Assembly: GCA_048939245.1 (NCBI GenBank)
Contig: JBHLPR010000060.1
Coordinates: 1-13,582, forward strand
Source of the DNA: Promethearchaeota archaeon
Lineage (GTDB): Archaea; Asgardarchaeota; Hermodarchaeia; Hermodarchaeales; Hermodarchaeaceae
Length of the DNA: 13,582 nucleotides
Reading direction: 5' to 3'
The notes under the pieces were generated by a model. It was not told the origin of the DNA. It saw only the letters and a program-made list of their open reading frames with translations, and did not search any database. Position numbers and translations under genes: made by a program. Shown one piece after another: positions 13,404 through 13,510 of this stretch (within the stretch, counting starts at the first letter, position 1; each line of letters begins with the position of its first letter).

Positions 13404-13510
13404 CTCGTGCCACCTCAGCCCTCGCAATCCCGCCCAAATAGCCGGATTCTTGAATCGGTTTAAGCCATTTGAGCTCTGAGTTCACGTTCAGTGATTACGG
13501 CTGAGCTGGT
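13404..13510 (-). other. 107-nt bulge-helix-bulge (archaeal-type) intron in 23S rRNA, no ORF
   Basis: Interrupts GUCGUGAG^ACAGG. The junctions form a 4-bp CGUG/CACG helix with an AGA on each strand, closed by a CCAGCUCAGCC/GGCUGAGGUGG stem. Confidence 0.9.

Follow-up and report, generated by a model that had tools for sequence, protein, structure and literature searches.

Does the 107-nt insertion that interrupts helix 93 (H93) of an Asgard 23S rRNA gene, beside the peptidyl-transferase ring, represent a spliced intron, a retained part of the ribosome or an artefact, and does its interior contribute to its own removal? The window analysed here is the whole 13.6-kb contig (13,582 nt) of a MAG, designated G000, that is 88% complete, comprises 122 contigs and has 3.6% contamination. 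The 3' part of a 23S rRNA gene occupies 13050..13582 (-), corresponding to positions 2623-2987 of the archaeal LSU rRNA model RF02540, and the contig end cuts the gene at 13582. The match to this model, running from window 13582 to 13050 (-), covers 533 nt with a score of 307 bits (E 3.7e-94) and contains 108 inserted bases at a single model position within H93.

Direct reading of the sequence places a 107-nt ORF-less intron of the bulge-helix-bulge (BHB) type at 13404..13510 (-), between G2599 and A2600 of H93, in exact agreement with the limits 13404-13510 given by the first-pass annotation. The 5' exon ends in ...GACCGUCGUGAG at 13511 (in a longer reading, ...GGGUUUAGACCGUCGUGAG), the 3' exon starts with ACAGGUUGG at 13403 (in a longer reading, ACAGGUUGGAUUCU), and the predicted spliced junction is ...GUCGUGAG joined to ACAGGUU.... 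By alignment the junction is ambiguous because of the 5-nt repeat GAGAC, and it is the BHB rule that fixes its position after G2599. On the H93 consensus structure, which extends from G2588 to C2606, with a GUGA tetraloop at 2595-2598 and a bulged A2602, the insert follows G2599 and lies three bases ahead of A2602. Its removal restores the universal GUCGUGAGACAGGU, which agrees with the RF02540 consensus and shows no difference from the sequence of intron-less congeners, bearing out the site originally proposed, in H93 after G2599.

The host gene is only partly assembled. Local blastn found no further 23S pieces in the G000 assembly, and the RF02540 family search of the MAG itself gave 0 matches, despite the 533-nt fragment in the window. 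This fragment is the sole one assembled in an 88%-complete MAG, and G000 may contain an intron-less second 23S copy. The contig itself stops within a conserved 23S stretch, at window 13582. More generally, introns of this type break the assembly and annotation of rRNA genes in Asgard MAGs, and intron-rich rRNA genes are probably under-reported there. At helix 98 (ES39; window 13155-13215 (-)), the same fragment exceeds the archaeal LSU model by an insert of 61 nt, which is also found in an independently assembled metagenome contig, L221; this insert is of the order of the 50-60 nt reported for ES39 in non-Loki Asgard lineages (PMC7594248).

At the exon-intron junctions, the exon strand CGUG (C2594-G2597; 13513..13516 (-)) and the intron strand CACG (13406..13409 (-)) form the central BHB helix with 4/4 pairs. 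This helix is flanked by a 5' bulge, A2598-G2599-a (13510..13512 (-)), with a predicted cut after G2599 (13511), and by a 3' bulge, a-g-A2600 (13403..13405 (-)), with a predicted cut after 13404; both bulges read AGA, and the consensus is regained when each is cut behind its second base. On the intron side, helix h' joins CCAGCUCAGCC (13499..13509 (-)) to GGCUGAGGUGG (13410..13420 (-)) with 10/11 pairs, and three contiguous pairs adjoin the bulge, at least two being the usual threshold. The exon-side helix is weaker, containing the mismatches U2593.C2601 and G2592.A2602 and then 4 bp, and formation of the native H93 pairs U2593-A2600 and G2592-C2601 would leave a 3' bulge of only 2 nt. By the definitions of Marck and Grosjean, the motif is therefore of the HBh' (relaxed) class, with H, B and h' intact and an exon helix h that is not contiguous with the 3' bulge, whereas the strict hBHBh' form demands contiguity there; the relaxed BHB that had been proposed is thus present. 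Owing to this non-contiguous exon-side helix, cleavage would need a broad-specificity enzyme.

Candidate splicing enzymes are encoded in the same MAG, which contains two PF01974 EndA genes and one PF01139 RtcB gene (563 bits), so that both enzymes on which splicing had been proposed to depend are available. One EndA, of 186 aa, has as its best PDB match the tRNA-splicing endonuclease chain 3p1z_B, which we take to be the alpha subunit of Aeropyrum pernix, and keeps Tyr, His and Lys residues that, compared by eye with those of M. jannaschii, presumably form the catalytic triad. Its alignment to 3p1z_B is gap-free through an N-terminal stretch assumed here to be the lineage-specific L1 loop. In the second paralogue, of 199 aa, the catalytic His is replaced, and the protein also matches the 3p1z_A/3ajv_A and NEQ261 chains, presumably beta subunits with a structural role, from Aeropyrum pernix and Nanoarchaeum, respectively. 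The combination of an alpha-like and a His-less beta-like EndA fits, at the level of sequence, the (alpha-beta)2 EndA with L1 loop published for Asgard archaea, the type that cleaves relaxed motifs (PMC5829648).

The Asgard affiliation of the host, also part of the initial reading, agrees with the presence in the window of a Ras-family small GTPase, a eukaryote-signature gene (203 aa, 7183-7794 (-); Ras 126 bits, with Roc and Arf also matched). This gene adjoins one for a beta-lactamase-fold protein and is consistent with an Asgard origin. Elsewhere in the window, at 585-2358 (+), adjacent genes encode a thioredoxin-fold protein (244 aa) and a pyridine nucleotide-disulphide oxidoreductase (336 aa), which are likely a thioredoxin/thioredoxin-reductase pair.

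The insertion in G000 belongs to a family defined by position and geometry. An intron-less copy of the region served as query against 400 Asgard genomes. It matched in 204, of which 19 (including G000), distributed over six families in this survey sample, are split exactly at the G2599/A2600 bond by inserts of 106-777 nt. The inserts fall into 11 sequence clusters that BLAST does not link at E <= 1e-3, and a BLAST search with the 107 nt of G000 against the 400 genomes retrieved nothing but itself; matches at E 0.005-0.1 were set aside as chance, the G377/G374 pair among them lying outside rRNA. A pattern scan with the 3' junction CACGARACAGGTYGGNTT produced mostly chance bacterial matches, with at least four Asgard records among the matches listed, and the introns differ too much in length for a matrix of global pairwise identities to be informative.

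Despite this sequence diversity, the splice-site architecture is conserved across the geometry set of 20 introns, consisting of the 19 genomes and L221. The central helix has 4/4 pairs in 18 introns and 3/4 in the remaining two, and it covaries: CGUG occurs with CACG or CGCG, UGUG with CGCA, and UGCG with AGCA, such that an exon C2594U is matched by an intron G to A and an exon U2596C by an intron G. All 20 introns have a 3-nt 5' bulge (AG followed by a or u), and the first two bases of the 3' bulge vary (ag, aa, ac, ca) at constant spacing. In addition, the two ends of each intron fit one another in helix h', with a mean of 10/12 pairs for true partners vs 5.8/12 when intron ends are swapped between introns.

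The origin of the family is indicated by one long member. In G195, an intron at the same bond extends over 777 nt and encodes a 211-aa LAGLIDADG_3 protein, the single ORF-containing version that the Asgard survey, as suggested by the first-pass annotation, revealed at this site. Over 44 nt, the distal arm of this intron has 82% identity (E 3e-9) with that of a 125-nt ORF-less intron in the congener G188, which occupies the same bond with the same BHB as in G000. Because of this ORF-containing intron and the arm common to an ORF-less one, the G2599/A2600 bond is regarded as a homing site, with ORF-less versions plausibly being remnants, and a mobile intron with a LAGLIDADG gene is the most likely ancestor of the intron family. 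For the 107-nt intron, the earlier suggestion of a homing-endonuclease remnant gains support from the ORF-containing intron at this site and from the G188/G195 arm, but no direct sequence homology between the G195 and G000 introns is detectable by BLAST. No ORF fits into 107 nt, in line with the absence of an endonuclease gene noted at the outset.

The MFE fold of the G000 intron region reaches -53.2 kcal/mol (z = -2.9), a value attained by 0/200 shuffles, and consists of a closing helix and a 6-bp helix, GUAAUC/GAUUGC, bearing a small hairpin and a long hairpin. All internal helices initially described are present in this fold, but the GAUUC/GAAUC hairpin is weak and not conserved. The long hairpin, GCUCAAAUGGC/GCUAUUUGGGC (13436..13474 (-)), carries two loop elements at its tip. 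The same three parts, closing helix, 6-bp helix and long hairpin, recur in the 122-nt Borrarchaeum intron (G312), with many positions that have changed and still pair, the long hairpin retaining 11/11 pairs with several positions changed; the G312 and G000 introns have sequence in common only at the hairpin tip.

It is this tip that points to a possible role for the intron interior. Loop element 1, CUUAAACC (13457..13464 (-)), is complementary to the 5' exon GGUUUAG (2582-2588), its proposed partner being the exon strand GGGUUUAG (about G2581-G2588; 13522..13529 (-)); in G000 it is predicted to be unpaired (P 0.81), with a duplex energy of -6.6 kcal/mol with the exon. Loop element 2, AGAAUCCGG (13442..13450 (-)), is complementary to the 3' exon strand UUGGAUUCU (about U2605-U2613; 13390..13398 (-)), proposed as its partner, with a core of GAAUCC against GGAUUC and a duplex energy of -13.9 kcal/mol. 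The fit in G000 is imperfect: there is a one-base shift in element 1, and a weak local hairpin as well as the arm stem are partial competitors for element 2.

Within the non-redundant set of 15 introns used for the loop analysis, a bipartite UAAACCC-N4-17-GAAUCC-like loop occupies the long-arm tip in 13, which are not independent cases because the introns may share ancestry. In each of these 13 the bipartite element is significant at p <= 0.023 against 2000 shuffles, seven of them reaching p < 0.0005. Element 2 appears as GAAUCC or AAAUCC, 4-17 nt after element 1, the linker being four bases or a small hairpin depending on the intron, and the elements fall in predicted unpaired loops across introns. 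The ORF-containing G195 intron carries both elements as well; they are absent from the G372 and G350 introns.

A complementarity profile, in which a 7-nt frame was moved across 25 nt of each exon with a threshold of >=6.5/7, localizes the signal. On the 5' side it peaks at exon offset -19..-13, where 10/15 introns reach the threshold, vs 0 to 3 at other 5' offsets; on the 3' side the peak lies at +8..+14, with 7/15 introns. Taken over both exons, non-peak offsets have 0 to 5 of 15 introns at or above the threshold, the highest being a secondary peak at +11..+17. The exon bases at the two peaks (2581-2587 and 2607-2613) directly abut H93 on either side. Furthermore, the exon variant GGGUUCA of G174 is matched by UGAACCC in the loop. 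Three candidate compensatory changes in this pairing were considered and only that of G174 was kept, since the change in G029 is wobble-compatible either way and the element of G372 is not significant; that G174 offers the sole clean case is a consequence of how conserved the exons are. The suggestion that the RNA might be functional in its own right thereby acquires a concrete candidate in this conserved, potentially exon-pairing loop.

A mechanism that would accommodate these features can be outlined. In the precursor, C2594-G2597, which in the mature rRNA are part of the GUGA tetraloop hairpin, would pair instead with the terminal CACG of the intron, leaving the lower H93 stem (4 bp) as the sole joint between the exons. 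The intron arm, comparable in length to the stack formed by H93, the central helix and the intron helix, would fold back alongside it, and its tip would pair with 2581-2587 and 2607-2613 to form a three-way junction at the base of H93, a pairing invisible to the folding programs used because it is a pseudoknot. Such a clamp could steady the exon-side helix, weak as it is, while the bulges are cut, and act as a splint between both exon halves during ligation. By analogy with the known pathway, the heterotetramer-type EndA composed of alpha and beta subunits would cut after the second base of each bulge, and the cut intron would keep bridging the exon halves during ligation by RtcB, which would restore GUCGUGAGACAGGU. 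The intron would then be released, probably as an RtcB-closed circle, whereupon the GUGA tetraloop and the single-stranded catalytic ring could form. Like the clamp, splicing and circle release of the 107-nt intron are here inferred from sequence.

Altogether, we hold with good confidence that the insert is a BHB intron of archaeal type within the apical part of H93, presumably spliced by EndA and RtcB and carrying a loop proposed as an exon clamp. Taken separately, the proposal that this loop acts as a clamp or splint by pairing with both H93 flanks is one towards which the evidence leans slightly. The broader proposal, that Asgard H93 introns are non-inert and that a pseudoknotted clamp presents the BHB, splints the exons and holds the catalytic centre unformed until excision, is offered tentatively, at somewhat short of even chances; the peptidyl-transferase-ring segments that would be paired include U2585 and bases beside A2602. 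If it is true, the H93 intron would be one that proteins splice and that supplies an exon guide of its own, possibly acting as a checkpoint in 50S assembly, and the excised circle would still bear loops antisense to the catalytic ring.

Among the alternatives, the one that survives best accepts a true BHB intron and denies its loop a role in splicing, treating the loop as a relic of the ancestral mobile intron or as a protein-binding site. In its favour, pairing is supported by a single clean compensatory change (G174), the AAAUCC/GAAUCC variants do not track exon position 2612 (the first base of element 2, G or A, varies independently of the exon), the G372 and G350 introns presumably splice without the loop, and the arm similarity between G188 and G195 reflects inherited intron parts. 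On the other hand, two short elements persist in predicted single-stranded loops while the rest of the introns has diverged beyond BLAST detection, and complementarity is confined to 7 + 7 exon bases abutting H93. Moreover, a search for a native rRNA segment from which the loop could have been copied found no adjacent motif pair within the neighbouring 1.5 kb of rRNA. On this balance the relic reading is rather unlikely, and the exon-clamp reading is retained.

Far less probable is a retained expansion segment, in which the insert would persist in the mature ribosome as a helical extension of H93. The hairpin tip is indeed a position where expansions arise, the central and intron helices would stack on H93 as a continuous arm, and Asgard 23S rRNAs have enlarged segments such as ES39 (PMC7594248). 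The distribution among close relatives is, however, that of an intron: in five genomes of the same genus (G002, G003, G006, G008 and G012) the uninterrupted GUCGUGAGACAGGUUGG is found and the intron is precisely absent, although the 3' exon of three of the five is 95.4-97.2% identical to that of G000, vs 94.1% in the carrier L221. Presence is thus patchy within the genus, all-or-none and with exact boundaries, rather than graded in length. In addition, 20 inserts with unrelated interiors have the same 4-bp helix, with compensatory changes, between bulges of fixed spacing, and one insert contains a homing-endonuclease ORF. Retention would also destroy the GUGA tetraloop, which all intron-less relatives have, three bases from A2602, and no expansion of helix 93 was found in the literature searched.

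An assembly or binning artefact, be it a chimeric contig or rDNA of foreign origin attached to this genome, is next to negligible. Such an origin might be suspected from a contig that ends inside an rRNA gene in a MAG of 122 contigs with 3.6% contamination, but it is removed by L221, which independently carries the same 107 nt at the same bond with three substitutions of its own, including a compensatory C-G to U-A exchange at two paired positions of the long intron hairpin, and lies beside the same downstream CLC channel gene as in G000 (79% DNA identity). The linkage of 23S and CLC genes also holds in the same-genus G008. Taking expansion segment and artefact together, that the insert is instead an intron can be stated with very high confidence.

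A self-splicing group I or group II intron has a vanishing probability, for although group I introns occur nearby in archaeal 23S genes, at L2593 (PMC6125680), 107 nt is too short for either ribozyme, the insert has no Rfam match at the gathering threshold or even at E <= 1, and the junction geometry is that of a BHB. A box C/D guide RNA was also considered and rejected, the 107 nt containing one CUGA and no C box (RUGAUGA) and giving no Rfam snoRNA match.

Further insertions were observed in domain V of Asgard 23S rRNA genes. In L221, a 31-nt insert lies at about 2695-2725 (-), between GUUAAAA and GGGAAC and ~30 nt upstream of the H93 site; it forms a 10-bp hairpin with a UGCG loop, is absent from G000 and is probably a mini-intron. 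Two other Asgard families have inserts of comparable size at the corresponding place, at about 339676-339702 in G312:C5 and about 14747-14777 in G372:C53. L221 also has ~1.19 kb of extra sequence at about 2800-4030 (-), corresponding to 23S model positions of about 2545-2580, in which a 210-aa ORF (3188-3820, minus strand) gave no Pfam match. This segment is likely another intron, and the L221/G000 lineage would therefore have at least three introns in domain V. Additional domain V inserts were located at G398:C117:271-997, G394:C46:47749-48505, G108:C8:54139-54756 and G118:C98:102165-102505. Relative to the H93 site, a 429-nt insert was seen ~19 nt upstream in two genomes of one genus, a 320-nt insert ~22 nt upstream in another Asgard genome, and a ~62-nt insert some 60-90 nt downstream in a third Asgard family.

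With at least 19 of the 204 matching Asgard genomes carrying an intron beside A2602, and with other domain V sites occupied too, many archaea related to the eukaryotic lineage appear to depend on the tRNA-splicing machinery for ribosome production. An exon-pairing loop that functions in the proposed way would additionally show how a protein-cut intron can persist where a weak exon helix does not allow a canonical motif.

BHB introns in rRNA genes are a textbook feature of hyperthermophilic Crenarchaeota, and Kjems and Garrett reportedly described them in crenarchaeal rRNA genes in 1991. The type of intron found here is thus already known: crenarchaeal 16S and 23S BHB introns of the Thermoproteales and Desulfurococcales occur as ORF-less remnants and as versions that code for LAGLIDADG proteins (Jay and Inskeep, 2015, PMC4496867). 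Like these, the H93 intron is of the enzyme-cut type, sits in the universally conserved rRNA core, has a BHB that is half exon and half intron, with exon bases that must re-pair after splicing, is patchy in close relatives, and has ORF-containing and ORF-less versions at one site. The host differs, being an Asgard archaeon and apparently not a hyperthermophilic crenarchaeon, and no description of BHB introns in Asgard rRNA genes was found in the literature searched. A second difference concerns the intron interior, since conservation in the crenarchaeal introns is reported for cores at the junctions alone, internal folds not being conserved among introns of one insertion site (PMC4496867), whereas the Asgard H93 introns have a conserved distal loop complementary to both exon flanks.

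A closer structural counterpart is provided by the relaxed HBh' pre-tRNA introns (PMC5829648), which likewise combine a 4-bp central helix, one well-formed bulge and an intron helix with a degraded exon-side helix, and which are processed by the same (alpha-beta)2 EndA architecture that G000 encodes. Unlike those introns, the H93 substrate is a 3-kb rRNA precursor with no tRNA-like scaffold holding the exon halves, and the loop-exon pairings would supply the scaffold role that the tRNA body has in pre-tRNA introns.

In group I introns, an internal guide sequence pairs with both exons (P1/P10). The segment of the H93 intron would similarly pair with and align both exons, as a functional analogy only: the exon bases concerned lie 13-19 nt upstream and 8-14 nt downstream of the junction, and there is no ribozyme core. 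An old idea holds that BHB introns descend from group I introns, and an exon-pairing loop that works as proposed would, through its functional parallel to the group I internal guide, bear on this idea of descent.
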